This document shows, one piece after another, positions 2,322 through 61,100 of a stretch of DNA of 64,000 nt (its first letter is position 1; each line of letters starts with the position of its first letter). Source of the stretch: Escherichia coli (GTDB lineage: Bacteria > Pseudomonadota > Gammaproteobacteria > Enterobacterales > Enterobacteriaceae); the NCBI RefSeq assembly GCF_013122565.1, contig NZ_CP053258.1. One strand, given 5' to 3'. The position numbers and the translations under genes are program-made. Under the pieces are notes generated by a model, which worked only from the letters and a program-made list of their open reading frames with translations, made no database searches and was not told the origin of the DNA.

Positions 2322-4613
2322 TTGTCAGAACTACTCTCTTTCGCCCTTTTTCTCGCCTCTGTGCTGATTTACGCATGGAAAGCGGGACGTAACACCTGGT
2401 GGTTTGCAGCCACGTTAACGGTGCTTGGGCTATTTGTCGTTTTAAATATCACCCTGTTTGCCAGCGACTATTTTACTGGCGATGGTATTAACGACGCGGT
2501 TCTCTATACCTTAACCAACAGCCTGACCGGTGCTGGCGTCAGCAAATACATCCTGCCGGGTATCGGCATTGTGCTGGGGCTGACGGCGGTGTTCGGTGCG
2601 CTGGGCTGGATCCTGCGCCGTCGTCGTCATCATCCGCACCATTTTGGTTACAGCCTGCTGGCGCTCTTACTGGCGCTGGGTTCGGTGGACGCCAGCCCGG
2701 CATTTCGTCAGATAACGGAACTGGTGAAATCCCAGTCACGCGACGGCGACCCGGACTTTGCGGCTTATTATAAAGAGCCGTCGAAAACTATCCCTGACCC
2801 GAAACTCAACCTGGTTTATATCTACGGCGAAAGTCTCGAGCGGACCTATTTTGATAACGAGGCTTTCCCGGATCTCACGCCTGAACTGGGCGCGTTGAAA
2901 AATGAAGGCCTGGATTTCAGCCACACGCAGCAGCTGCCAGGAACGGATTACACGATTGCGGGCATGGTGGCTTCTCAGTGCGGCATACCGCTGTTTGCCC
3001 CCTTTGAAGGCAACGCCTCCGCTTCTGTTTCCAGCTTCTTCCCGCAGAACATCTGTCTGGGCGATATCCTGAAAAACTCGGGTTATCAGAACTATTTCGT
3101 GCAGGGCGCGAATCTGCGTTTTGCCGGTAAAGATGTGTTCCTGAAGTCGCATGGCTTCGACCACTTATATGGCTCAGAAGAGCTGAAAAGTGTGGTGGCC
3201 GACCCGCACTATCGCAACGACTGGGGATTCTACGACGATACCGTTCTCGACGAAGCGTGGAAAAAGTTTGAAGAGCTTTCCCGCTCAGGTCAGCGATTCT
3301 CACTGTTTACCCTGACAGTCGATACCCATCACCCGGATGGTTTTATCTCGCGCACCTGTAACCGCAAAAAATATGATTTTGACGGTAAGCCGAATCAGTC
3401 ATTCAGCGCGGTAAGTTGCAGCCAGGAGAATATCGCGGCGTTTATCAACAAAATCAAAGCGTCACCGTGGTTTAAAGATACTGTCATCGTCGTCTCTTCT
3501 GACCATTTAGCGATGAACAACACGGCGTGGAAATACCTCAATAAGCAGGATCGCAATAACCTGTTTTTTGTCATCCGTGGCGACAAGCCGCAGCAAGAGA
3601 CGCTGGCAGTGAAGCGTAATACGATGGATAACGGCGCGACGGTGCTGGACATTCTCGGTGGCGATAACTATCTCGGACTTGGTCGTAGCAGTTTATCCGG
3701 GCAGTCAATGTCGGAAATCTTCCTCAATATCAAAGAGAAAACATTGGCGTGGAAGCCGGATATCATCCGCCTGTGGAAATTCCCTAAAGAGATGAAAGAG
3801 TTCACCATCGACCAGCAGAAAAACATGATTGCCTTCTCGGGTAGCCATTTCCGTTTGCCGCTGCTGTTGCGGGTTTCAGACAAACGCGTGGAACCGCTGC
3901 CGGAAAGCGAATACTCAGCACCGCTGCGTTTCCAGCTGGCCGATTTCGCTCCACGCGACAATTTCGTCTGGGTTGACCGTTGCTATAAGATGGCACAACT
4001 CTGGGCTCCGGAACTGGCACTTTCCACCGACTGGTGTGTCTCGCAAGGGCAGCTTGGCGGTCAGCAAATTGTCCAGCATGTTGACAAAACAACATGGAAG
4101 GGCAAAACGGCATTTAAAGATACGGTCATCGACATGGCGCGTTACAAAGGCAATGTCGATACGCTGAAGATTGTTGATAACGATATTCGCTACAAAGCCG
4201 ACAGTTTCATCTTCAACGTCGCCGGTGCGCCAGAAGAGGTGAAACAGTTTAGCGGGATTTCCCGTCCGGAGTCGTGGGGCCGCTGGTCCAACGCTCAGCT
4301 GGGCGATGAAGTAAAAATCGAGTACAAGCATCCGCTGCCGAAGAAATTTGACCTGGTGATTACCGCCAAAGCATACGGCAATAACGCCAGCCGTCCTATT
4401 CCGGTACGCGTAGGCAATGAAGAACAAACCCTTGTGCTGGGCAATGAAGTGACCACCACCACGCTGCATTTCGATAACCCAACCGATGCCGACACACTGG
4501 TAATTGTGCCGCCGGAACCTGTCTCAACCAACGAAGGGAATATCCTCGGACACTCGCCGCGTAAGCTCGGGATCGGCATGGTGGAAATTAAAGTGGTAGA
4601 ACGTGAAGGGTAA
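2322..4613 (+). CDS. opgB: Phosphoglycerol transferase I (OPG biosynthesis), sulfatase-family membrane enzyme
   Basis: 763 aa with apparent TTG start; N-terminal TM segments then sulfatase-like domain; sequence recognised as OpgB/MdoB. Confidence 0.93.
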
Positions 4614-25200: not shown

Positions 25201-25500
25201 TCTCGGATGAATGAATTATTCATTAGCGACCATTTGACCGACAAAGATATGATCAGCAATGCTTTTGCGGTGTATAACAAAATAACTGAAAATGAAAATG
25301 TTATGACACAAATTAAAAACAATCCCCCAGAACAAGCGATTCTTGGTGATTTCCTCCAGGCAGTTGATAATGCTGTAATGGACAGTAATGACGCTCGGCA
25401 AGAATTTATGTTGCAATATTTATCCGATCCAGCTCGGGCAAAGGGCTTTGCTTATCTGATGTTTGATATGCTAACGGGGAAAATTGCTTTACCAACATAA
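22237..25500 (+). CDS. hsdR: Type I restriction enzyme R subunit (endonuclease/helicase)
   Basis: 1087 aa; N-terminal PD-(D/E)xK-like DLVLFINGLPVATLELK; SF2 motifs GSGKS and IADEAHSS (nt 23596-23610); ATGA overlap with hsdS stop. Confidence 0.88.
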   Translation: MNHDITKEVNLQNDIIAQMVEKGWIVGKGDGYDRERALYAQDTLNFVKTTQPQEWEKFARVYPNDTERHFLDALVAQLKKADSNATDIQSRTWGTLGVLRHGLKIRNARFSLCQFKPEHNLNPETLARYQQNICRIVPELVYSPYASNSVFAETGVKAKKWRIDLVLFINGLPVATLELKSEFKQAVQNAIAQYKKTRLPKDPATNKPEPLLTFKRGALVHFAVSQYDVFMTTKLAGDSTFFLPFNKGTKDGGAGNEIPEDTRRYATDYLWNEVLLPDNLLKILASFVHLQIEEKEDWNGLKAKKESLIFPRYHQWDVVNKLLEAATIEGTGHKYLIQHSAGSGKSNSIAWTAHQLSRLYDVNGEKLFHSVIVVTDRTVLDDQLQDTIWQFEHADGVVGRINNREGDGSKSEKLASALENSQPIIIVTIQTFPFVLKAIENSISLKQRKYAVIADEAHSSQSGSTARQLKEVLMSEEMDDDVVLSSEDILDATIAARKGSSNLNYYAFTATPKSKTLELFGRCPRPDEPASKTNKPEAFHVYSMRQAIEEGFILDVLKNYTNYKVAYQLLQKLEDENREVDSKRAKVKLNQWVTLHDHNISQKVKVIVEHFRKHVMHLLGGQAKAMVVTSSRKAAVRYKLAFDKYISENNYQKISAMVAFSGEVEFREGDHNSLALLNQKFTEINMNPGLKGRDMRKAFDSDDYQVMLVANKFQTGFDQPKLCAMYVDKPLGGVECVQTLSRLNRTYPGKAESGTFVLDFYNDPDEILGAFQPYFQTAELTDVSDPQQVFDLFEKLRATQIFQWHEVEQFCEAYFIKNKSNAAISNICKPAVERWKKRYLMAIDAYLTAKEMFERTKKTGDTVLITNAENSFKACKQEKDRLEIFKKDLGSFVRFYEFMSQIVEYDDKDLEKLSLFARHLRPLLHEQRLEEDEIDLSNVEMSHYRLSKIHEQDLRLQEETPDYTLDASNNIGTAKAKDKKEEFLSQVLSRMNELFISDHLTDKDMISNAFAVYNKITENENVMTQIKNNPPEQAILGDFLQAVDNAVMDSNDARQEFMLQYLSDPARAKGFAYLMFDMLTGKIALPT

Positions 25501-50193: not shown

Positions 50194-51024
50194 ATGTCTA
50201 TGCCATTAAGCAATGTCCTTCAGAGTCAAATTATTACAGATAATCACTTCCTTCATCACCCAAAAGTCGACAATGAGTTAACACGTAAATATGAACGTGC
50301 ACGCCTGGATACGGAAAATATCTATCTTCTGCCTCTTGCTCGTGGCAATAACCATAATTACGATGGAAAAAGCGTTGTCGAAATTAGAAAACTTGATATT
50401 AGTAAAGAGTCCTGGCCATTTAATTATGTGACAGAAGCATGCAGAGAATCCGATGGTATTACAACAACAGGACGTATGCTCTATCGAAACTTGAAAATCA
50501 CCTCAGCTTTAGACGAAATATATGGTGGTATATGTAAAAAGGCGCATGCTGCTACAGAATTAGCAGAAGGTTTACGGCTAAATTTATTTATGAAGAGCCC
50601 TTTCGATCCTGTTGAGGACTATACAGTTCATGAAATAACATTAGGCCCTGGTTGCAATGTTCCTGGTTATGCCGGAACCACGATAGGATATATTTCAACC
50701 CTTCCAGCTTCTCAGGCAAAAAGATGGACCAATGAGCAGCCAAGAATTGATATCTATATTGATCAGATAATAACTGTCTCAGGGGTAGCAAATTCTTCCG
50801 GATTCGCCCTTGCCGCATTACTTAATGCTAATATTGAGATGGGAAATGACCCAATCATTGGTATAGAAGCCTATCCCGGTACCGCGGAGATCCATGCAAA
50901 AATGGGATATAAAGTTATCCCCGGTGATGAAGATGCGCCACTCAAACGCATGACTCTGCAACCGTCATCTCTTCCAGAACTGTTTGAATTAAAAAATGGT
51001 GAATGGAATTATATTGGTAAATAA
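50194..51024 (+). CDS. yjiC: Uncharacterised protein YjiC
   Basis: 276 aa; AT-rich; long AT-rich upstream region; recognised as YjiC. Confidence 0.88.
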   Translation: MSMPLSNVLQSQIITDNHFLHHPKVDNELTRKYERARLDTENIYLLPLARGNNHNYDGKSVVEIRKLDISKESWPFNYVTEACRESDGITTTGRMLYRNLKITSALDEIYGGICKKAHAATELAEGLRLNLFMKSPFDPVEDYTVHEITLGPGCNVPGYAGTTIGYISTLPASQAKRWTNEQPRIDIYIDQIITVSGVANSSGFALAALLNANIEMGNDPIIGIEAYPGTAEIHAKMGYKVIPGDEDAPLKRMTLQPSSLPELFELKNGEWNYIGK

Positions 51025-51125
51025 CTACCAGGAACAATGAGTACTAATATTCAGGTTATACAGATATTTAAACAATACCCTGCAATTTACAAAATAATAC
51101 TCATTGCGACTTCTTAATTTAAGAA

Positions 51126-51152
51126 AGCGCAAGGAACGTTTACCCTTGCGCT
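51126..51152. terminator. Hairpin between convergent yjiC and uxuR (agcgcaagg ... ccttgcgct)
   Basis: 9-bp perfect stems followed by tattat. Confidence 0.45.
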
Positions 51153-51164
51153 TATTATAATAAG

Positions 51165-51938
51165 TCAGGCGTCGACTTTATCCAGCGGCCATGAATCAAA
51201 CAGATAGCCGTCAAAATAAATATCGTCAACGTTCGAGAATTCCAGCAGACGTTGCTTAACGTTTTCCAGATGCTGCCACATTGCCAGCTTCGCCGCTCGG
51301 GCATCTTTTTTGATTAACGCGGCGAGGATCTGTTTGTGATCGCCCAACCACTCTTTGCGATACAGGCTGTCATCCAGATGGCTGTGCAACTGGATCCACA
51401 TTGGATTGTTTTCCCGCCACTGCCAGGACTGACGGAATAACTCCACCAGCATGCTGTTATGCGTTGCTTCAGCAATGGCGAGATGGAACTGCATGTCACC
51501 GCTTTCGCTGCTACCCGGCGCGCTGGAAGCCAGTTCACGCTCTTCCAGTTGCAATGCCTGACGCATTTTGACGATATCTTCGCGGGTAGCCTGCAGGGCG
51601 GCAAACTCGGCGATGTTACTTTCCAGTAACTGACGCGCCTGTAACAGCTCAAAAGGACCCGCATCATTGCAGACGTTGGCATCCGGACTGTCTGTGTTGT
51701 GGCTGCCTGAGCTATCAAGAACATAGATACCGGCACCCCGGCGCACTTCCACCAGCCCTTTGATCTCCAGCATGATCAGCGCTTCACGTACCACCGTCCG
51801 CGTGACATCAAGCATTTCTGCAATTTCACGCTCCGGCGGCAGCCGTTCGCCAGGATTGTACGGCGTCTTTATGATCAGATCGCGGATCATCGCCCCGACT
51901 TCCTGGTAAGGTCTTTGCGCAGAGGTGGCAGATTTCAT
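51165..51938 (-). CDS. uxuR: GntR-family repressor of the fructuronate/glucuronate regulon
   Basis: 257 aa; HTH then FCD domain; recognised as UxuR. Confidence 0.93.
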   Translation of the reverse strand: MKSATSAQRPYQEVGAMIRDLIIKTPYNPGERLPPEREIAEMLDVTRTVVREALIMLEIKGLVEVRRGAGIYVLDSSGSHNTDSPDANVCNDAGPFELLQARQLLESNIAEFAALQATREDIVKMRQALQLEERELASSAPGSSESGDMQFHLAIAEATHNSMLVELFRQSWQWRENNPMWIQLHSHLDDSLYRKEWLGDHKQILAALIKKDARAAKLAMWQHLENVKQRLLEFSNVDDIYFDGYLFDSWPLDKVDA

Positions 51939-51975
51939 GGTGTTGTGTCCGTTAGGTGCGGTTAATCAAATTTTT

Positions 51976-52010
51976 GCCGGATGCGGCGTGAACGCCTTAT
52001 CCGGCCTACA
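51976..52010. repeat. REP element
   Basis: gccggatgcggcgtgaacgccttatccggcctaca. Confidence 0.7.
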
Positions 52011-52094
52011 ACGGGCAATTTTACGGCCCCCGTTAATCTCAAACTATACCATTAGCACTGGAAGTTGGCACGTACAGGTGGGCAAAAAAACGAA

Positions 52095-52110
52095 AACTGG
52101 TCAACCAAAT
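52095..52110. promoter_or_regulatory. Candidate UxuR/ExuR operator (TGGT-N2-ACCA palindrome) in the uxuR upstream region
   Basis: aactggtcaaccaaat; FadR-subfamily GntR regulators bind TGGTnnACCA-type palindromes (established knowledge); placement consistent with autoregulation. Confidence 0.4.
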
Positions 52111-52152
52111 ATCAGTTTGATTGACCAGTAAGTCTGTAGGGTAATCAGTTAG

Positions 52153-53613
52153 TTACAGCGCAGCCACACACTCGCGCGCACCGCGTTCGCACAGCTGCTG
52201 ATATGCCGCCGTCACCGCGCCAACAAAGTCGGCATTTTGCGGCAGATCATCGGCAAAAATACCGCTCAGGCCCAGCAGCGCTTTCACGCGGTCTGCGCCC
52301 TGATACTGCGCGTTAATCTTCTGGAACTCGGCCAGCATCGGGTCGACCACGTCAATGGCATTACCCTGCTCATCCACGCCCTGGGTGTAACGCATCCAGC
52401 CAGCCACGCCCAGCGCCAGGTGACGCCAGCTGCCGCCGTTTTGCAGGTGCAGACGCACCGGATCCAACAGACGCTGCGGTAACTTCTGGCTGCCGTCCAT
52501 CGCAATCTGCCAGGTACGGTGACGCAGAGACGGGTTGCTGAAACGCTCGATCAGCAGCGTCGCATAGGCGTTCAGGTCCGTACCTTCCGGCATCGACAGC
52601 GTTGGCGCTTGTTCCTGCATCATCAGGGCAAAGGCCGCTTTGCGATAATCCGGGTTAGTCATGGTGTCGGCAATGGTTTCATAGCCGCCGAGGTAACCGA
52701 GGTATGCCAGGAAAGAGTGGCTGCCGTTCAGCATACGCAGCTTCATCATTTCGAACGGCACAACGTCTGCAACGAACTGTGCGCCCACTTTATCCCAGTC
52801 CGGACGACCATTAACGAAGTTATCTTCAATCACCCACTGACGGAACGGTTCGCAGGCAATGGCGCACGGGTCGTAAACACCCAGCTGGTCAGCAATTTCC
52901 TGTAAGGTTTCTGGCGTCGCCGCCGGAACGATGCGGTCAACCATGGTGCACGGGAAGGTGACGTTCTCTTCAATCCATGCCGCCAGCTGCGGATCGCGTG
53001 CCTGAGCCAGCCCCAGAACCGCGACCTTTGCCACATGACCGTTTTCGCGTACGTTGTCGCAAGACATCACCGTAAACGCTTTCAACCCTTTTTCACGACG
53101 CAGGCGCAAGGCTTCGACGATGTAACCAATTGCAGACTTCGGCGCAGTCGGGTTTTCCAGATCGTGCTTGATCAGCGGGTTATTGAGATCCAGCTGACCG
53201 CTTGCCGCATCAGCGCAGTAGCCTTTTTCCGTGACCGTCAGGGAGACAATCGCCGTTTGCGGACGCGCCATCGCGTTGAGAATACCTTCGCAGCCGTCGA
53301 TTTCCGGATGCAGCGCTTCTTTCATCGAACCGATAATTTTCAGCTCGGTGCTTTCTGCGCCTTTTTCCGCTACGGTGTACAGCAGTTGCTGTTTTTTCAG
53401 GTTTTCGATCAGCACGCGGTCGTTGCCTGGCATCAGGTTAACTTCGCAGATGCCCCAGTCGCTGTCGGTGCTTTCCAGCAGATGATGGGTATACAGCGCC
53501 TGGTGCGCGCGGTGAAACGCCCCGCAACCGAGATGCACAATGCGTGATTCCAGACGAGAATGATCCCATGACGGGCGGGCAACCGGCAGATTGCTGTCAA
53601 CAATAGTAGTCAT
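52153..53613 (-). CDS. uxuB: D-mannonate oxidoreductase
   Basis: 486 aa; Rossmann motif HLGCGAFHRAHQ; recognised as UxuB. Confidence 0.95.
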   Translation of the reverse strand: MTTIVDSNLPVARPSWDHSRLESRIVHLGCGAFHRAHQALYTHHLLESTDSDWGICEVNLMPGNDRVLIENLKKQQLLYTVAEKGAESTELKIIGSMKEALHPEIDGCEGILNAMARPQTAIVSLTVTEKGYCADAASGQLDLNNPLIKHDLENPTAPKSAIGYIVEALRLRREKGLKAFTVMSCDNVRENGHVAKVAVLGLAQARDPQLAAWIEENVTFPCTMVDRIVPAATPETLQEIADQLGVYDPCAIACEPFRQWVIEDNFVNGRPDWDKVGAQFVADVVPFEMMKLRMLNGSHSFLAYLGYLGGYETIADTMTNPDYRKAAFALMMQEQAPTLSMPEGTDLNAYATLLIERFSNPSLRHRTWQIAMDGSQKLPQRLLDPVRLHLQNGGSWRHLALGVAGWMRYTQGVDEQGNAIDVVDPMLAEFQKINAQYQGADRVKALLGLSGIFADDLPQNADFVGAVTAAYQQLCERGARECVAAL

Positions 53614-53693
53614 CGTAAACTCCAGAATCCGTCTTCAGAGAGTGACGGCAAGGAAGAAGGAACCGGCACGGCGCGCAGCCATGCCGGTGGATA

Positions 53694-54878
53694 TTAACGG
53701 CTAAAGAAAGCGCGCTGGATCGCCAGTTCGACACCGCGAACTTCGGCCAGGCCTTTCAGACGACCAATTGCGGAGTAACCTGGGTTGGTTTTCTTCTTCA
53801 GGTCGTCCAGCATCTGATGACCGTGGTCCGGACGCATCGGGATCAGGTCTTCTTTGCCTTCCGCTTTACGACGGTGTTCTTCTTCAACAATCGCTTTCAC
53901 CACTTCGTACATATCAACGTCACCGTTCAGGTGCGCCGCTTCGTGGAAGGTTTTCGGGTTATCTTCACGCATGGTGGAGCGCAGATGGGTGAAGTAAATA
54001 CGCGGACCGAACTGCTTGATCATATCAACCAGATCGTTGTCAGCACGCACGCCGTAGGAACCGGTGCACATGGTGAAACCGTTCGCCATGCTGTTTACGG
54101 TATCAACCATCCACTGCATATCTTCAATGGTGGAAACAATGCGCGGCAGGCCAAGGATCGGGCGCGGCGGATCGTCCGGGTGAACCGCCATACGGACGCC
54201 AACTTCTTCAGCAACTGGAATAATCGCTTTCAGGAAGACGGCAAAGTTTTCGCGCAGCTTCGCTTTATCGATATCTTTGTACAGCTCCAGGTGCTTACGG
54301 AACTGGTCGAGGGTATACCCTTCTTCCGCGCCCGGCAGACCGGCAATGATGTTACGCGTCAGACGCGCTTTGTCTTCGTCGCTCATAGTGGCGAAGCGTT
54401 CAGCTGCCTGAGCAATTTCTTCTTCGGTGTAATCCGCTTCCGCGCCTGGACGTTTCAGGATATGCATTTCGAATGCAGCGAATTCGATCTGGTCGAAGCG
54501 CAGAGCTTTGGAGCCGTCTGGCAGCACGTATTCGAGGTCAGTACGGGTCCAGTCGAGCACCGGCATGAAGTTGTAGCACACGGTGCGAATGCCGCACTGC
54601 GCCAGGTTGCGCAGAGTCTGCTGATAGTTAGCGATCCACTGCTCATAGTTGCCAGTGTGGGTTTTGATATCTTCGTGAATTGGTACGCTTTCTACGACAG
54701 ACCACACCAGGCCTGCGTCTTCAACGATCGCCTTGCGTTTGAGGATCTCTTCTACGGACCATACTTCGCCGTTCGGGATATGGTGCAGCGCGGTAACCAC
54801 GCCAGTTGCGCCCGCCTGACGGACATCAGCTAAAGAAACCGGATCGTTTGGGCCGTACCAGCGCCAGGTCTGTTCCAT
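53694..54878 (-). CDS. uxuA: Mannonate dehydratase
   Basis: [35 protein letters not shown]...; recognised as UxuA. Confidence 0.93.
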
Positions 54879-55040
54879 GATTTTTCCTCTTTCACATAGT
54901 GGGTTCCACAGCAAAGAGACGCGGAACCCTGGAGTTGTTTAGGTATCCGGATGAACAACCAGACCGCAGCCGTGGCGTTGCATCGGATGAGATGGCGTAT
55001 AAGTTCTACCTTTTGGTAAGACATGTCAACCCGAATTCTA

Positions 55041-55057
55041 AAATTGGTTAACCACAT
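55041..55057. promoter_or_regulatory. Candidate UxuR/ExuR operator upstream of uxuA
   Basis: aaattggttaaccacat contains TGGT-TA-ACCA; about 165 bp upstream of the uxuA start. Confidence 0.45.
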
Positions 55058-55148
55058 CACAAGAATTTCACTCTCATGGTTGTTGATGCAAATTGCAGCA
55101 AAGGGTAATCGATGGTTATTGATCAGAGGATGTGACATTCATAGCAAC

Positions 55149-55164
55149 AATGGTTGACCAATTT
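55149..55164. promoter_or_regulatory. Second candidate UxuR/ExuR-type palindrome
   Basis: aatggttgaccaattt contains TGGT-TG-ACCA. Confidence 0.3.
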
Positions 55165-55736
55165 ACATAACATGTCGCCCAAAATAACAATGGATTAACC
55201 TGGAGAGATAAAACGTTATTAGTTTCTCGCAGACTACGGTGGTGATTGCGCTCATGCTGTTCTACACCTCGCGGTCACGATTGGTGAGATCGTGACCGAA
55301 ACATCGCAAGAAGATTTTTACACACCAGTGTCTGATTATTTAACGACGGCCGCCCGGCGGGGTTATACGCAAGTAGTGGTGAAACCCTACTCAACCACGG
55401 CGTCGAGGTGACCAGCGTTCTGAAGCTGCCCAAAATACAATCCTCTTGCAGAGACTATCCTCTGATCGCCTATTTAAAAATGAATGTTGAACAATTAGGA
55501 AAAGGAAATGTGATTTATTACAATAACTACGGTGACTATTCTAATAATATGACTTGTGAATAAAACTAAATGATCAATGGCAATTTACTACAGATAAAAT
55601 GCCTGACGAGATTCAATCATTATATGTTTAACTTGCCAGACATTTATTTTATAATAAAGAAAAATGCACATTCGTCGATTAATATTCAACGCGTAGACGT
55701 CATATCAGATATGCTATTTAAAAGGAATTAACTCTA

Positions 55737-55886
55737 ATGGCACACAGTATAAAGCAATGTTTCCATGCGGTTGGAAAAGGTACTCTTTATACCGGACAGA
55801 TAAAAAACATGTCTAACAACAGGCTTTTTCGTGCCAGCTATATTTGTCCAGTGTGTCACCCCATCCAAAAATTATCCACATCCTGA
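55737..55886 (+). CDS. Possible small Cys/His-containing protein (49 aa)
   Basis: Manual translation MAHSIKQCFHAVGKGTLYTGQIKNMSNNRLFRASYICPVCHPIQKLSTS; aagga Shine-Dalgarno about 11 nt upstream; AT-rich island spacer; could be spurious. Confidence 0.25.
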   Translation: MAHSIKQCFHAVGKGTLYTGQIKNMSNNRLFRASYICPVCHPIQKLSTS

Positions 55887-56068
55887 CGTTACGTTAGATA
55901 TAGAGAAAAGAGGTTGTACTGTGCAATATGCAAACCGCATAAGCGAATATAATTTCTAAGTTGATATTGTCTGGCTGTTGGGAGCTAAGCAATATAAATA
56001 TCACCAGTTGTCAGAACGGTTATATAGACCAGGAGCGTTTCGGCTCCTGGTCTGTTTCGGACATATTA

Positions 56069-58183
56069 TCAGTCAGCCACTAATAGCGGGCTAGGGATAC
56101 CAGATGATGAAACAAACAGCCCTTTTACGGCACGGGTTGCAGCCACATGCAGTAACGCGCGCTCATTAAATAATGCATCACGCTGTTCAACGGGATCATC
56201 GGATGCTAATGCTTTTATTTCCGGCACAACGCCTTCGTTAATTCCCACCAGGAACACATACTGGAACTCAAGCCCTTTAATACGGTGCATCGTTGCAACC
56301 CGCACGCCAGGGCGTGCATCGCTGTCACCGCTATCATTGCCTAAATTAAATGTCTCAATTCCGGCGTCATTCAGTGCTGATGCGTAGCGGTCACAAGCAT
56401 GTTTAGTACGCGCAGTAATGCAGATATCCTGAGAACGAACCTGATTCGCCAGCAATGCCTGAATTTGCTTGACGAGCGTTGCAGCCTCTTCTTTGAAATC
56501 TGCCGCATGCGTAATCATGGGCTTTTCCCCGTGCAGTAATGACAAATAATCATTACTGGTATCCGCTTCGCCATCGAGGTTATCAACCTTCACACCAGTT
56601 AACAGCCCAACAGCAAATTGACGCGTCTCTTCTGTGGTCCGATAGTTAATCTTCAATTTTTTACTGCGACGACCACGGACGTTAATACCACACTGACCAA
56701 GAACGACCTTATTGCGATAAATACGCTGATGCCCATCCCCGACAATAAACAGATCGTTGGGCGACTCGGGAACCAGGCTGCGAATAAGAGTAAATGCCGG
56801 GGCACCGATATCTTGAGCTTCATCGACCACAATACTGCTATAAGGTAGTTGAACCTGTTTTTCTTTAAACAGAACAATAGCCTCATGCATGGCATCGCCC
56901 ATTTCGCGCAGTTTGGCACGCGCCATTTGTGCTCTGAATTCTTCAAAGACTGGCCAGATTTTCGCCCGTTGAATACGGGATAACGCTGTACCACGTCCAA
57001 CCCGGCTGACTTTGAGGTATTCCTCCCGGGTGTAAACCGCATTTGGCTGGACAACGCGTTGCCACTCTTCAGCATAGAAATTGTCAGGTAGCCCCAGTTC
57101 GGCAGGTGCCTGCTGCAAGGCATAGTTCCAGCATTTGCGTCGCCCTTCATCGCTGTCGTATACCACGCGGAAATCATAACCGTGGCGTTTTAGTTGGTCG
57201 CTCATCCAGGCATCAATGTTAACGACGTCAATACGCGCCATCTCTTCTCGCGTACACAACCGCTGGAGATTAGCGCGAATATCTGCCGCCAGGTTACGCG
57301 TAAATGTCGTGAAAAGTACCTTCTTACCGGGTTTATCTGCCAGACGCTGAGATAACCACCGCGCACGGTGCATCGCAACAACCGTTTTCCCTGTACCTGC
57401 ACCACCCAGTACTCGTACCGGACCATTAGCGGGCGACTCCACCAGTTTTCGCTGGCTCGGATGCAGAAATACACGCCATTTTTCTAAAGGCGCATTAAGC
57501 ATCTGCAACAGCTCCTGTTCATTTTCAACGACATGGAAGCGACGTTTACTTCGTTCAATCGCCTCCATAAAGTCGTTGGTATCAACAGGCTCATCACGAT
57601 GATCGTTAAACTCTTCCAGCACTTCCTGGTAATCCAGCCCTTCTGCCAGCCAGTGCAGAGGTTCCCAGGCTTCTGCTGGCATTATGCTTTCAAGTTGATT
57701 AAGCCCGGCTTCATCGGTAAGCGCCATCACCTGATCAATAAAGACAGGCGGCACACCCAGGGCCAGAATCTGTTCCGCGCTGTAAGCTGCGAAGAGTTTC
57801 GGTTTATCAACCACCGTTTCCGCTGCCGGTTTGATATAGCTAATATCAATGACCTGAATCGCGCCGGTAACCGGGTGAATCGAACAATCATGCCGCCGCG
57901 CCCAGTCGTATGCTTCGTCGTGTTTATCCACCCACATCAGCATATACAGGGCACCCTGTTCAGGTTTCAGAACAATGCCGCGATAAGTTTGATCGATTCG
58001 CACCGAATGGACATTTTTACTGCGCGCATCGTGGATCTTTTCATAGTTAAGTCCATTACTGGTCGGGTCCTGACGGAATTTGGAGATGAATTCCTGCACC
58101 TTTTTTTGCTGTGCTTTTGGGATCCGCGCGAATGCGCCCAGAAAACCATCAGAAAGTGCCACCTTGGGCGTTTGCACCGTCAT
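56069..58183 (-). CDS. UvrD/PcrA-like SF1 helicase with about 220-aa N-terminal domain of unknown function
   Basis: 704 aa; Walker A VLGGAGTGKT; VVDEAQD; FIVGDGHQRIY; C-terminal RIKGLEFQYVFLVG; start overlaps the stop of the upstream giant gene (ATGA). Confidence 0.8.
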   Translation of the reverse strand: MTVQTPKVALSDGFLGAFARIPKAQQKKVQEFISKFRQDPTSNGLNYEKIHDARSKNVHSVRIDQTYRGIVLKPEQGALYMLMWVDKHDEAYDWARRHDCSIHPVTGAIQVIDISYIKPAAETVVDKPKLFAAYSAEQILALGVPPVFIDQVMALTDEAGLNQLESIMPAEAWEPLHWLAEGLDYQEVLEEFNDHRDEPVDTNDFMEAIERSKRRFHVVENEQELLQMLNAPLEKWRVFLHPSQRKLVESPANGPVRVLGGAGTGKTVVAMHRARWLSQRLADKPGKKVLFTTFTRNLAADIRANLQRLCTREEMARIDVVNIDAWMSDQLKRHGYDFRVVYDSDEGRRKCWNYALQQAPAELGLPDNFYAEEWQRVVQPNAVYTREEYLKVSRVGRGTALSRIQRAKIWPVFEEFRAQMARAKLREMGDAMHEAIVLFKEKQVQLPYSSIVVDEAQDIGAPAFTLIRSLVPESPNDLFIVGDGHQRIYRNKVVLGQCGINVRGRRSKKLKINYRTTEETRQFAVGLLTGVKVDNLDGEADTSNDYLSLLHGEKPMITHAADFKEEAATLVKQIQALLANQVRSQDICITARTKHACDRYASALNDAGIETFNLGNDSGDSDARPGVRVATMHRIKGLEFQYVFLVGINEGVVPEIKALASDDPVEQRDALFNERALLHVAATRAVKGLFVSSSGIPSPLLVAD

Positions 58184-61100
58184 TTGTCACCTCCGGACAG
58201 ATGTTGCAATGTATTTTCGTCAATTGGCCCGAATGCAACGTGCCAACCTCTGGTTGTGAATAATGGAATAAATTCTTGATTATCAATAATCAATGCCCAT
58301 TTTTGTGATGGCCAGGCGAGATCGGCTTCTGCAATAATTTCACCCTCATCATTTTGCAATTCGTAGCCGAGAGTCGGCGCAGAGAGAGAATGAGACTGAA
58401 GCAACGCGATCTCTTCAGCGCTTAATAAGCCAAACTCAATAATCTCAGCCCAACTTTCATCAGTCTCTGGTACTGCCTCTGGCGTTGCCGAAACTTTAGT
58501 GTCAACGCTTTCCTGCGGTAAATGCACGGCTTTACGGCTGGTAAAGGTCATATCCGGCAGGAACTGTAACAGGTTTACCAGTCGCCAGAAGCCATTGAGT
58601 CCCGCTTCATAACCGTCATCCTGCGTATAGCGATCGTCAAAACAGATATGCAAACGCAGCCAGCTGCGCATTTGTGCGACGCTGGTCGTCGGTTTAATGG
58701 CTTGTTGTGGTAACACCGAAGCCAGTTCAATAAATTGCTGCGATGAGTTACAGCTATCGAGTAAACCACCAAAGACAAACGGTTCGTCTGGCAAAAGCTC
58801 TGCTAGCCGCCAGGCTGGCGCGTTTTCCTGCATTTCATAGGCATACTTTTGTTTCGTTCCCGCGTCCTGTGACTTCTTCACATCCAACCACACCCAGGCA
58901 TGTGCAGCAGCCATTCTCTGCCATAACTGCGTTCTTCCGCCCGGATCGGCGAGATAATCCAGCAGCAGTGCAAAACTGTTACGTTCCCGGAACGACGCTT
59001 CAAGGGCCGCAAAGTTGGTATCGTGAAACAGGTTATAAAACTTAGGCTGTTTCATATCCGGGTTATGCCCAAGTCCCAGGACATCCTGAACATGTTTAAG
59101 CCCAGGCTCTTTGAGATCGGCCCACGTGACTGTCCACACCCAGAAATTACCGCTATCCCGAATCGCCTGGCGTTTTTGCACATCCTCTGCGACGCTATTT
59201 TTGTGGAACGCAAAGCCATCAAGGAAAATAGCCACCGGTTTAATGGCATCAGACTGCATAAGCGGATATAGCACGTAATCCGGGCGACAAGGGATCCCCA
59301 CCGCCTCTTTAGCGCCTAAATCCACCTGAGCTTTAAGATGCCAGCTCATCATCGGTTCGCTGCGGGTGTTAATAATCCACCCAGCGCCCTGATGCGCGTA
59401 ACTGCGACTGACAATCAGGTTTTTATTTTCTTGCAGGCAGCTAATAAACCGTTTTTCCAGCTCACTGCCCATCATGGCTTCGAGGGAAATGTTTTTGATG
59501 GAATCAATTACCCGTATCGAATCTCTTGCCTGCAAAATTTTCGCCAGCAAGAGACGCGCCTGATCGCGGGAGACATACTTCATGCGCCCACGGTCACGGT
59601 AAGCGTAAACGCAACGATAACAACCATCTTTATGCGTATCATTGTTGCAACTGCATTCCACTATTGCCTGATAGGCCAGTTCAAGTAATTTCAGCAAATT
59701 GTCGGGAGTGCGCATCAGCTCTTTAAGAGAACCAGTTCCCCCCGGGACGGTATCGTAAATCACCAGATACTGCCGCCAGGATTCGCCTTCATTTTCCGGC
59801 TCGCGGTACACAACGCCTTTCAGGTGATCGACATTCCCCTTGAAGTAATGCTTAAGGCCGAGCTGGATCGCCGCCCCAAGAGAAGCCTCCACGACACGGT
59901 CATTACTGTAACTGCTTACCGGGAGCAGAATACGCAACGCTTCTGACTCCAGCTGGCGATAGAGGTAGAGATAATCTTCGAACTTCGCCTTTTCCGGTTC
60001 CGTGCGATATTTGCAGCTCAAATCATGACGTGGTTCATGATCGCGAGGACGCTGCACCATGCCGCACCCGAGGCAAACTTTAAACCCGGTTCGCTTCTTC
60101 GCTTCTCCGGCAATCATCAACTCATTGGCATCATCCGCCATTTTGCCGAAGTTGATATCCCGCAGGGTGACTTTGCTTAAAAATTCAAAACCAAACGGAA
60201 CTTCGCCTTCCTCAATCGCGTATGCCGCCGATACATCTTCTTTTTCGAAACTAACCAATAGCTGACGCTGGAAGAAAGCAGGTTCACGGCTGTCGCTCTC
60301 GTCGCTGATCTGGCTATCACGTGCGCTGGCGCGGGCATAAACCTGGCGAAGTTTCAGCAGCGTGGTTTTTTGTCCGGCATCGGCCCACCCCGGTGTGCCA
60401 CATTTCGGGCAATATTTATGCTGGTCGCCCGTCTGGTCGATATTTTCGCTGTAGTTACAGTGGCTACAGATACGCCAGTTCTCCGGCTCAGAGACCTTCA
60501 GGTCTATCTGCTCAATTTCAACTTTATGCCCACCGGCATAGAAATTATTCAGCGGAGCCAGCTCAGCCAGCGCCGTTGATGCCGGGCGTTCATATTCGAA
60601 AGTGGTGTTTTGATATTCACGCGCTTCCCCGCCTTCTTTACGCCGCCAGAGCACAGAACGTAACGTAATACCGGCTTCCGGGAAGGCGTAGTTAGGCAGC
60701 AGCCCTTCATCCGTGAGGAAATTCAGCGTTTGCTTATTGTTGATTTGATTGACCAGCGCCATCAGCGCCTGTCGTTCTGAAGTTAACTCGCGCATATCGC
60801 TATCAAAGTTTTGATCGCGCGGCGCGTTCTCCAGTTTATCGATACTGCGCTTGAGCTTATCGATGCGTGAGCGCAAAGATTTGCGATCTTCCACCAGCAG
60901 TTTTAACGCTTCTTCGATACGCTGCACCAGCGAGCGTTGTCCTGGCGCGCCCTGAAGATAAGACAACAGCTGTTGGCGAGTTTCTGCGGCAAGATCGGGG
61001 AAGATCGCCGTAAATTGTGCAGCAATCTCCGCATGATGCTGTTCGATATATCGCAGTAAGTTATACGGAAAACCCGATTTACGCCCGAACTCCAGCTCAT

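Follow-up and report, generated by a model that had tools for sequence, protein, structure and literature searches.

Three palindromes with the core TGGT-N2-ACCA, found in the 64-kb stretch of DNA analysed here (the window), are very probably the natural operators of UxuR, a GntR repressor of the FadR subfamily, in the E. coli gntP-uxuAB-uxuR locus. Judging from sequence identity with K-12 and from secondary sources, they are the already known UxuR sites of the uxu locus; the finding is right but ordinary, and its significance beyond annotation is small. It draws on direct observations of sequence fit, position, conservation and the co-occurrence of box type with uxuR, as well as on a hairpin at one of the sites. 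In the proposed mechanism, a UxuR dimer would bind each 18-bp palindrome (the TGGT-N2-ACCA core with its A/T-rich flanks) without inducer, and D-fructuronate or glucuronate would free UxuR from the operators. The genes and palindromes of the cluster are:

51165-51938, minus strand: uxuR, gene of the cognate repressor (257 aa, GntR HTH and FCD domains), named from the uxuR annotation in matching genomes
52153-53613, minus strand: uxuB, fructuronate reductase, with 2 substitutions relative to K-12
53694-54878, minus strand: uxuA, mannonate dehydratase, with 1 substitution relative to K-12
52094-52111, no strand: site 1, 18-bp UxuR-type operator AAACTGGTCAACCAAATA, exact core at 52098-52107, 13/16 consensus positions
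55041-55058, no strand: site 2, proximal uxuA operator AAATTGGTTAACCACATC of the same type, exact core at 55045-55054, 13/16 consensus positions
55147-55164, no strand: site 3, ACAATGGTTGACCAATTT, core at 55151-55160, 14/16 consensus positions, the best consensus match in the window

The gene assignment of the initial annotation is right, and uxuR, uxuB and uxuA all lie on the minus strand. The repressor gene is present and intact: its product matches the Pfam families GntR (3.3e-23) and FCD (1.7e-22) and differs from K-12 UxuR by two substitutions, S76N and H80Q.

The TGGT-N2-ACCA palindromes of the uxu locus

Across both strands of the window, TGGTNNACCA has just three exact matches (52098-52107, 55045-55054 and 55151-55160). 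The palindromes to which the initial annotation had drawn attention are therefore real and are exactly these three, and its strings are found at 52095-52110 (aactggtcaaccaaat), 55041-55057 (aaattggttaaccacat) and 55149-55164 (aatggttgaccaattt). The expected count in 64 kb, taken from dinucleotide-preserving shuffles of the window, is 0.64, and at least three matches occurred in 1 of 100 such shuffles. When up to one mismatch is allowed, there are 28 matches against 20.4 expected, and enrichment over the whole window is not clear. All three exact boxes (3/3) lie inside the ~550 bp of non-coding DNA of the uxu cluster. An independently published 18-bp UxuR consensus, AAATTGGTATACCAATTT (PMC8092373), was also used as a scan pattern, with its central 2 nt left out to give 16 scored positions. 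The three boxes are its best matches in the window (14/16 for site 3, 13/16 for each of sites 1 and 2). A fourth match at 25481, also 13/16, has a mismatch in the core, lies within the coding sequence of a type I restriction R subunit and is probably due to chance. Rfam has no family match within 50500-56200, and a full-text literature search for the 10-mers found no paper listing the sites.

The positions of the boxes in the uxu locus are identical between the window and K-12, where the cores are found at 4551354-4551363, 4551460-4551469 and 4554407-4554416 of NC_000913.3, and other genera have kept the boxes at the orthologous places. Between the window and K-12, the uxuB-uxuR spacer shows 100% identity; in the gntP-uxuA spacer the boxes are unchanged, with 3 SNPs between them and a diverged 48-bp tract at the junction. 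The same core is present upstream of K-12 uidR (AAATTGGTTAACCAAT) and, with 1 mismatch, upstream of uidA. A survey of 60 Enterobacterales loci gives a 43-fold enrichment of the exact box within 300 bp upstream of uxuA (0.91 vs 0.021 per kb), and in the non-Escherichia loci TGGT-N2-ACCA ranks second most enriched among 1280 palindrome patterns. In K-12 genomic SELEX, the gntP/uxuA spacer is the one target that purified UxuR picks out; the operon holds two of its binding sites, and glucuronate weakens the peak at gntP/uxuA (PMC5934670). UxuR has been reported to repress both its own gene and uxuAB, and deletion of uxuR derepresses a uxuAB-lacZ fusion in K-12 (PMC9369180).

By their sequence, the three boxes are of the UxuR type and not of the ExuR type, which matches the published spacing rule that UxuR sites have the form GT-N2-AC and ExuR sites the form GT-N3-AC (PMC4494728). 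The two uxu spacers contain no N3-type box, even with one mismatch allowed, and the window as a whole contains no exact one. In a co-occurrence test drawn from the 60 Enterobacterales uxuA loci, N2 boxes are found in all four loci with a linked uxuR (4/4) and in none of those without (0/24), whereas 16 of these 24 carry TGGTAnAACA boxes instead; the ExuR-regulon genes exuR and uxaB of K-12 also carry TGGTAnAACA. The split between N2 and N3 boxes across Enterobacterales thus provides a usable rule for assigning uxuA loci to UxuR or ExuR. It also narrows the half-site pattern that the initial annotation had attributed to UxuR/ExuR: the UxuR consensus does fit, but the mention of ExuR was too broad, as the N2 spacing defines the UxuR class.

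Short patterns with 8 specified bases do arise randomly, as the single shuffle with three boxes illustrates, but the idea that the palindromes are products of chance without function has next to no probability. All three fall within a minute fraction of the 64 kb, the uxu non-coding DNA; their flanks too agree with the 18-bp consensus; they are kept across genera and enriched upstream of uxuA; and the uxu locus is a documented target of UxuR binding. Conservation and enrichment in particular effectively refute it. It is also quite improbable that ExuR, or a heterodimer of ExuR and UxuR, is the main protein on the boxes in place of UxuR homodimers. The half-sites of the two paralogs are similar, and classical genetics cited in PMC9369180 has the uxu operon repressed by the products of both exuR and uxuR, with heterodimers proposed. 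However, the GT-N2-AC spacing is that of UxuR, the TGGTAnAACA boxes of K-12 exuR and uxaB have no N3-type counterpart in the uxu spacers, N2 boxes are found only at loci with a linked uxuR, and purified UxuR alone is able to pick out the uxu locus.

Sites 2 and 3 and the junction with the helicase island

The gntP-uxuA spacer contains, besides sites 2 and 3, the following elements:

55024-55029, minus strand: TTGACA, likely uxuAB -35 hexamer (GGTTGACATGT is invariant in the Escherichia/Citrobacter footprint alignment)
55046-55061, minus strand: putative CRP-like site TGTGAtgtggtTAACC, which overlaps site 2 (centres 4 bp apart) and has an invariant GTGA half
55131-55146, plus strand: gntP-side putative CRP-like site TGTGAcattcaTAGCA, located 17 bp from the site 3 centre
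55172-55219 (48 bp), no strand: diverged spacer tail, in which 7 of 32 positions differ from K-12 in the alignment

Site 2 has its centre 171.5 bp upstream of the uxuA ATG, and 20.5 bp separate that centre from the conserved TTGACA downstream of it. Nine Escherichia and Citrobacter sequences share GTGAT.TGGTTAACCAATTT without any change, whereas the DNA around it is not conserved; in the Escherichia/Citrobacter footprint, the conserved islands are box 2 with its GTGA half, box 3 with its CRP-like site, and TTGACA. Each of the CRP-like sites near sites 2 and 3 has one perfect half and one 3/5 half relative to TGTGA-N6-TCACA, and halves of both are conserved in Escherichia and Citrobacter; in the gntP-side site, the window has a T where K-12 and two other strains have a G (TCGCA). 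Site 2 (55045-55054) is positioned just upstream of the likely uxuAB -35 element, overlapping a conserved CRP-like half-site, and we infer that it represses uxuAB mainly by blocking CRP-dependent activation. Another uxuA promoter, TTGTGA-16-TAGAAT, would place site 2 between its -35 and -10 elements; it was rejected as the main promoter, as Citrobacter has not kept its -10 element, which in K-12 reads CAGAAT.

The estimated operator positions are ~-55 for uxuAB and ~-66 for uxuR. Both operators would sit further upstream than the core promoter, an unusual arrangement for simple steric repression.

Site 3 is centred 277.5 bp upstream of uxuA and 62.5 bp before the would-be gntP ATG (using the K-12 gntP start as reference). 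Escherichia and Citrobacter have kept both this box and the CRP-like site next to it. Site 3 most likely serves as operator for the divergent gntP promoter, and its core (55151-55160) would be located in the core of that promoter, whose candidate geometry is either TAACAT at 55168-73 or TTTACA-18-AACAAT at 55162-91. Both boxes of this spacer had been described as lying upstream of uxuA; both do, but the distal one is better assigned, on this evidence, to the gntP promoter.

The gntP gene itself is missing, and tblastn with GntP finds no remnant of it in the window. The megablast match to typical E. coli stops at query position 4220, which is 55219 of the window; after the diverged tail, a 9-bp deletion has taken out the gntP ATG, and the island junction comes next, at 55219/55220. 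Because of a few apparently alignable bases, a decayed gntP was considered beyond 55220; it was rejected when tblastn with K-12 GntP and sensitive blastn gave nothing past the first 70 bp. The earlier statement that the uxuA regulatory region is intact up to the junction is borne out, since the whole gntP-uxuA spacer is retained to 55219/55220, although its last 48 bp have diverged. Because gntP has been replaced by the helicase island, site 3 is orphaned in this strain. The orphaned site may still aid in the repression of uxuAB, any role ascribed to it after the loss of gntP being presumptive.

Site 1, the uxuR promoter and the hairpin after uxuB

Three further elements are found at or near site 1:

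52043-52071, minus strand: candidate uxuR promoter from a promoter scan, GTGCCA, 17-nt spacer, TATAGT preceded by TG (extended -10)
52083-52129, minus strand: terminator-like element from a terminator scan and an inverted-repeat search, starting 24 nt past the uxuB stop codon
52118-52127, no strand: degenerate second box TGATTGACCA, with 1 mismatch, 20 bp from site 1, forming the 5' arm of the hairpin

Site 1 is centred 164.5 bp upstream of the uxuR ATG; with the uxuR start predicted from the position of the conserved extended -10 element, the centre would be an estimated ~66 bp upstream of that start. E. albertii, C. youngae and K. oxytoca share the TGnTATAGT of the candidate promoter, and the uxuR orthologs of E. 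albertii, Citrobacter, Klebsiella, Aeromonas, Budvicia and Photobacterium have a conserved TTGGTTGACC(A/C) box upstream. Site 1 (52098-52107) would serve in uxuR autoregulation, as an operator located upstream of the promoter of that gene. The degenerate box (52118-52127) was rejected as a second uxuR operator: it decays as a box in Citrobacter and Klebsiella (GGGTCAATCA, GGGTCAACTG) and yet keeps its pairing, so it appears to act as a stem arm instead.

The hairpin has a 14-bp stem (52129-52116 paired with 52109-96), a 6-nt loop and a T-run, TTTTCGTTTTTTT, and its 3' arm is site 1. Its folding energy alone is -18.3 kcal/mol, with z = -3.1 in a 91-nt context. Over an alignment of only 5 sequences, 70 of 70 pair cells are paired, but 54 of 500 shuffles are equally good; these same 5 sequences hold one compensatory change, U-A to G-C (Citrobacter and Klebsiella), and three one-sided changes in which pairing is retained. 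The T-run is weak and not clean in K. oxytoca. Among the genera that have the hairpin, drift affects the 5' arm and leaves the 3' arm nearly invariant, which argues for an extra constraint on the 3' arm. Positioned directly after uxuB, the hairpin and T-run look like the uxuAB terminator. The 14 nt of site 1 would then also encode the descending arm of an intrinsic uxuAB terminator, and we infer such a dual use of site 1 as operator and terminator arm. No description of an operator-within-terminator overlap was found in the accessible literature. If true, the arrangement is a small, testable curiosity, in which one compact element would control both the read-through of uxuAB transcription into uxuR and the start of transcription from the uxuR promoter.

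A combined proposal, in which 52096-52109 is dual-purpose (as DNA, a UxuR operator for uxuR autoregulation; as RNA, the descending arm of the uxuAB terminator) and a loop through in-phase operators has been kept after the loss of gntP, is possible but tentative. Site 1 could instead be nothing but the 3' arm of the uxuAB terminator, with its box-like look coming from a self-complementary GGT/ACC-rich arm and with no functional operator. The strong hairpin and T-run directly 3' of uxuB fit this, as do the compensatory change in Citrobacter and Klebsiella, which saves the pairing and breaks the perfect palindrome (TGGTTGACCC), and the ~66 bp to the likely uxuR start, which is distant for a repressor. 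It is nevertheless very improbable: a TTGGTTGACCA box stands upstream of uxuR in Aeromonas, Budvicia and Photobacterium, all of which are without an E. coli-type terminator, the 3' arm is nearly invariant against a drifting 5' arm, SELEX gives two UxuR sites in the operon, and UxuR is a reported autorepressor. As for looping, sites 2 and 3 could be paired, with repressors 106 bp apart on the same helix face looping the spacer and with site 3 needed for full repression of uxuAB, which is unlikely though not without support. In gntP-uxuA-type loci the centre-to-centre spacings of the two sites are 104, 104, 104, 105, 106, 106, 138 and 159 bp, equivalent to 9.9-10.1, 13.1 and 15.1 helical turns, with the sequence in between not conserved; the two boxes have been kept in each of two distinct arrangements without gntP (the window and locus L049), and the operators lie outside the core uxuAB promoter. 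However, these are just three independent spacing classes, for which the chance of all being near-integral is ~0.03, and the constant spacing may merely reflect two back-to-back CRP-dependent promoters. In addition, repressors of the FadR type are described as dimers, with no report of higher UxuR oligomers found in the accessible literature, and the loss of gntP is perhaps too recent for site 3 to have decayed.

The locus in this strain and comparison with known systems

Taken together, the reading of the palindromes as UxuR operators describes a uxuAB-uxuR regulatory module that is intact in a strain where a helicase island has taken the place of the neighbouring gntP and of anything that lay beyond it. 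Consequently, uxuAB should remain repressed by UxuR and inducible by fructuronate or glucuronate. Since the strain is without the fructuronate transporter GntP, growth on external fructuronate is expected to be lost; growth on glucuronate via ExuT should remain.

The closest comparison is with the UxuR operators of K-12 at gntP/uxuAB and uxuR, which we take to be those curated in RegulonDB and RegPrecise and which were reportedly the subject of work by Rodionov in 2000, Bates Utz in 2004 and Suvorova in 2011. Locus, positions and box sequences are the same, and the cognate UxuR is present with 2 substitutions. In contrast to K-12, gntP, the target of the distal operator, has been deleted in this strain, the helicase island abuts the spacer, and the spacer has 3 SNPs, none within a box and one within the CRP-like half-site on the gntP side. 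ExuR operators (those of exuT, uxaCA, uxaB and exuR in E. coli, and of uxuA in Enterobacter, Serratia and others) likewise serve a paralogous repressor of hexuronate catabolism and are A/T-flanked palindromes with a TGGT half-site, but they have the form TGGTAnAACA (GT-N3-AC) and not the TGGT-N2-ACCA seen here, and none is found in the uxu spacers of the window. Operators of the FadR subfamily of GntR regulators (winged-HTH dimers) share the palindromic TKGT/ACMA pattern, the A/T-rich flanks and the release of the repressor by a carboxylate effector (PMC4494728); the 2-nt central spacer places the uxu boxes in a minority class, as most members have 3 nt. Finally, the element after uxuB resembles intrinsic (Rho-independent) terminators in having a stem-loop and then a T-run right behind the stop codon that ends an operon's last gene, but it differs from them in that just 5 of the 14 pairs of its stem are G-C and in that its 3' arm would double as a repressor site for the next gene.

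Three palindromes around the uxu genes

The initial annotation had placed three TGGT-N2-ACCA palindromes around the uxu genes, and its three strings are indeed present at the coordinates it gave. They are the only exact matches to TGGTNNACCA on either strand of the 64-kb window:

52098-52107, core of site 1, TGGTCAACCA, exact match
55045-55054, core of site 2, TGGTTAACCA, exact match
55151-55160, core of site 3, TGGTTGACCA, exact match

By chance, 0.64 exact matches would be expected per window, and three or more were seen in one of 100 dinucleotide-preserving shuffles; all three boxes fall within the non-coding DNA of the uxu cluster, which totals ~550 bp. When up to one mismatch is allowed, the whole window yields 28 matches versus 20.4 expected, which is no clear enrichment; thus, what stands out is the exact boxes and their location. 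In a scan with the 18-bp UxuR site from a published biosensor, AAATTGGTATACCAATTT (PMC8092373), in which two central bases were skipped and 16 positions were scored, the three sites took the top three ranks (14, 13, and 13 of 16). One further 13/16 match, at 25481, has a mismatch in the core and lies within a type I restriction R-subunit gene.

The genes flanked by these boxes are:

51165-51938, minus strand, uxuR
52153-53613, minus strand, uxuB
53694-54878, minus strand, uxuA

UxuR contains a GntR HTH and an FCD domain and has two amino acid differences from its K-12 counterpart. The uxuB-uxuR spacer, which holds site 1, has 100% identity to that of K-12 MG1655, and the gntP-uxuA spacer, which holds sites 2 and 3, is nearly identical to its K-12 counterpart, with three SNPs that all lie outside the boxes. 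The final 48 bp of the latter (55172-55219) are ~22% diverged from K-12 (7/32 aligned positions); the remainder is <1% diverged.

Site 1 and the uxuR leader

On the gene strand, site 1 forms the 3' arm of a 14-bp hairpin, ACUGGUCAAUCAAA-CUGAUA-UUUGGUUGACCAGU followed by UUUUCGUUUUUUU, which starts 24 nt past the uxuB stop codon. With a folding energy of -18.3 kcal/mol alone and a z of -3.1 in its 91-nt context, the hairpin is a predicted terminator-like element for uxuAB. A compensatory change in Citrobacter youngae and Klebsiella oxytoca (ACUGG...CCAGU to ACGGG...CCCGU) keeps the stem, and in K. oxytoca the 5' arm carries three further one-sided changes that leave pairing intact. Across five sequences 70/70 pair cells are standard, a result equaled by 54/500 shuffles, so the sample is too small for significance. 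The 3' arm hardly varies while the 5' arm drifts, and a TTGGTTGACCA box is present upstream of uxuR in Aeromonas, Budvicia, and Photobacterium, all of which lack this terminator. Together, the near-invariance and the box in terminator-less genera argue that the 3' arm may serve both as operator and as stem. Within the 5' arm, a degenerate box (52118-52127) was rejected as an operator, since its behavior is that of a stem arm alone.

A conserved extended -10, TGnTATAGT, at 52043-52051 likely marks the uxuR promoter, so that site 1 would lie near -66. Between this likely promoter and the start codon, the uxuR leader contains a REP-type palindrome (GCCGGATGCGGCGT / ACGCCTTATCCGGC, 51976-52005). 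In E. albertii (L016) and in the divergent Escherichia genome SCPM-O-B-8794 (L049), the uxuB-uxuR spacer carries ~54 extra bp.

The gntP-uxuA spacer and the adjoining island

An alignment of nine Escherichia plus Citrobacter sequences reveals three conserved islands amid unconserved DNA within the gntP-uxuA spacer. One is box 3 with an adjoining CRP-like site (TGCGAT...TCACA); another, GTGAT.TGGTTAACCAATTT, consists of box 2 and a CRP-like half-site that it overlaps; and the third, GGTTGACATGT, contains a TTGACA, 15 nt after box 2, that is likely the uxuAB -35 hexamer. Site 2 is centered 171.5 bp from the uxuA ATG and 20.5 bp from this likely -35 hexamer, upstream of both, and UxuR bound there would be expected to block CRP-dependent activation. 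A promoter-like match that has site 2 between its -35 and -10 is not conserved and was rejected.

Site 3 had also been placed upstream of uxuA, where it does lie; it is centered 62.5 bp before the position of the former gntP ATG, within a candidate gntP core promoter. Bates Utz 2004 reportedly described a UxuR operator that overlaps the gntP promoter, with CRP being required. Given this position and this report, site 3 is best read as a gntP operator whose gene is absent in the window. The centers of boxes 2 and 3 are 106 bp apart, and spacings in related gntP-uxuA-type loci are 104-106, 138, and 159 bp, all near whole helical turns; such phasing is a hint of cooperation or looping between the two sites, but comprises only three independent spacing classes.

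At 55143 the window has T, versus G in K-12, ABW_A19, and the island-bearing MB06022, which weakens the gntP-side CRP-like half-site (TCGCA to TAGCA); selection on the site may have relaxed once gntP was lost, or the change may be noise. Site 3 and the gntP-side CRP-like site are flanked by an imperfect 19-nt inverted repeat (55102-55120 / 55183-55201; 84% complementary, arms 62 nt apart), which may be due to chance.

As had been proposed, the regulatory region of uxuA remains intact as far as the island junction: the spacer matches typical E. coli up to 55219/55220, precisely where gntP would begin, and a 9-bp deletion has taken out the gntP start codon. Beyond this junction, no remnant of gntP was found in the window. 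In place of gntP, and whatever lay beyond it, stands an island (55220-64000) with two helicase ORFs:

56069-58183, minus strand, UvrD/GajB-like helicase (PADLOC GajB, 2.5e-36)
58180-63984, minus strand, DruE-like giant helicase (Druantia DruE, 4.7e-76, plus an MrfA Zn-binding (MZB) domain); >1934 aa, running off the window end

The pair resembles a two-gene defence-like module, and the same arrangement occurs in only 9/5426 complete E. coli genomes. Within 55172-55219, the window shares variant GGTTAATCCATTG with L049, which also lacks gntP. The diverged tract and this shared variant suggest that a distant lineage donated the island through homologous recombination and that the crossover fell just past site 3. 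The gntP-less arrangement in L049 is a second, different one, having other genes upstream of uxuA; it keeps the spacer in full, CRP-like sites and both boxes included, and breaks off ~18 bp before the gntP start. Recurrent breakpoints at the gntP start may point to selection to retain the uxuA control region.

Box type across uxuA loci and in K-12

Operators of the FadR subfamily of GntR regulators, to which UxuR belongs, are A/T-rich palindromes with TKGT/ACMA boxes, and the gap from GT to AC is 2 nt in UxuR sites and 3 nt in ExuR sites (PMC4494728). The boxes had been said to fit UxuR/ExuR half-sites; the UxuR part of this holds, since all three have N2 spacing, and including ExuR is too broad by sequence. 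Judged by spacing, the boxes belong specifically to the UxuR type.

A degenerate pattern for the UxuA N-terminus found 120 loci, one genome per species. In the 60 Enterobacterales loci, the exact box has a density of 0.91/kb in the 300 bp upstream of uxuA versus 0.021/kb elsewhere, and the 1-mismatch box one of 4.4/kb versus 0.52/kb; 47/60 have at least one box. With Escherichia excluded, TGGT-N2-ACCA is the second most enriched of 1280 palindromes of the form 4-N(0-4)-4, after an AT-only pattern. N2 and TGGTAnAACA boxes never occur together among the 60 loci. Where at least 4 kb of downstream sequence was available (28 loci), N2 boxes are present in 4/4 that have a linked UxuR ortholog and in 0/24 without one, while 16/24 of the latter have an ExuR-type box. 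The pattern is clear, though the p-values overstate independence, as the loci are related by descent. Two other conserved motifs were seen upstream of uxuA:

130-172 bp upstream, (G/A)ATTTGGTGAACCAGAAG, at a constant distance in Flavobacteriia, other Bacteroidota, and some MAGs (L010, L033, L037, L073, L087, L092, L094, L114, L118, L120)
326-414 bp upstream, AAGGTGTTAGACCACTTT, a third box variant (TGTTAGACCA) common to Edwardsiella, Hafnia, and Yersinia (L038, L042, L050, L071, L072)

The former resembles TGGT-N2-ACCA in a phylum where UxuR/ExuR are not expected, and an unrelated GntR-type regulator may use it as its operator.

In K-12, purified UxuR had the gntP/uxuA spacer as its sole target in genomic SELEX; the operon has two binding sites, and glucuronate lowers its binding there (PMC5934670); UxuR also represses the uxuAB promoter and itself (PMC9369180). 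As the boxes do not differ from those of K-12, the same results apply directly to the window. The reading of the three palindromes is upheld by sequence fit, position, and identity to K-12, and as predicted from sequence they are UxuR operators already known. K-12 also has the N2 core upstream of uidR (AAATTGGTTAACCAAT) and a one-mismatch version of it upstream of uidA. In contrast, the ExuR-regulon genes exuR and uxaB of K-12 have TGGTATAACA and TGGTAGAACA rather than the N2 core, an N3 type that is absent from both uxu spacers of the window.
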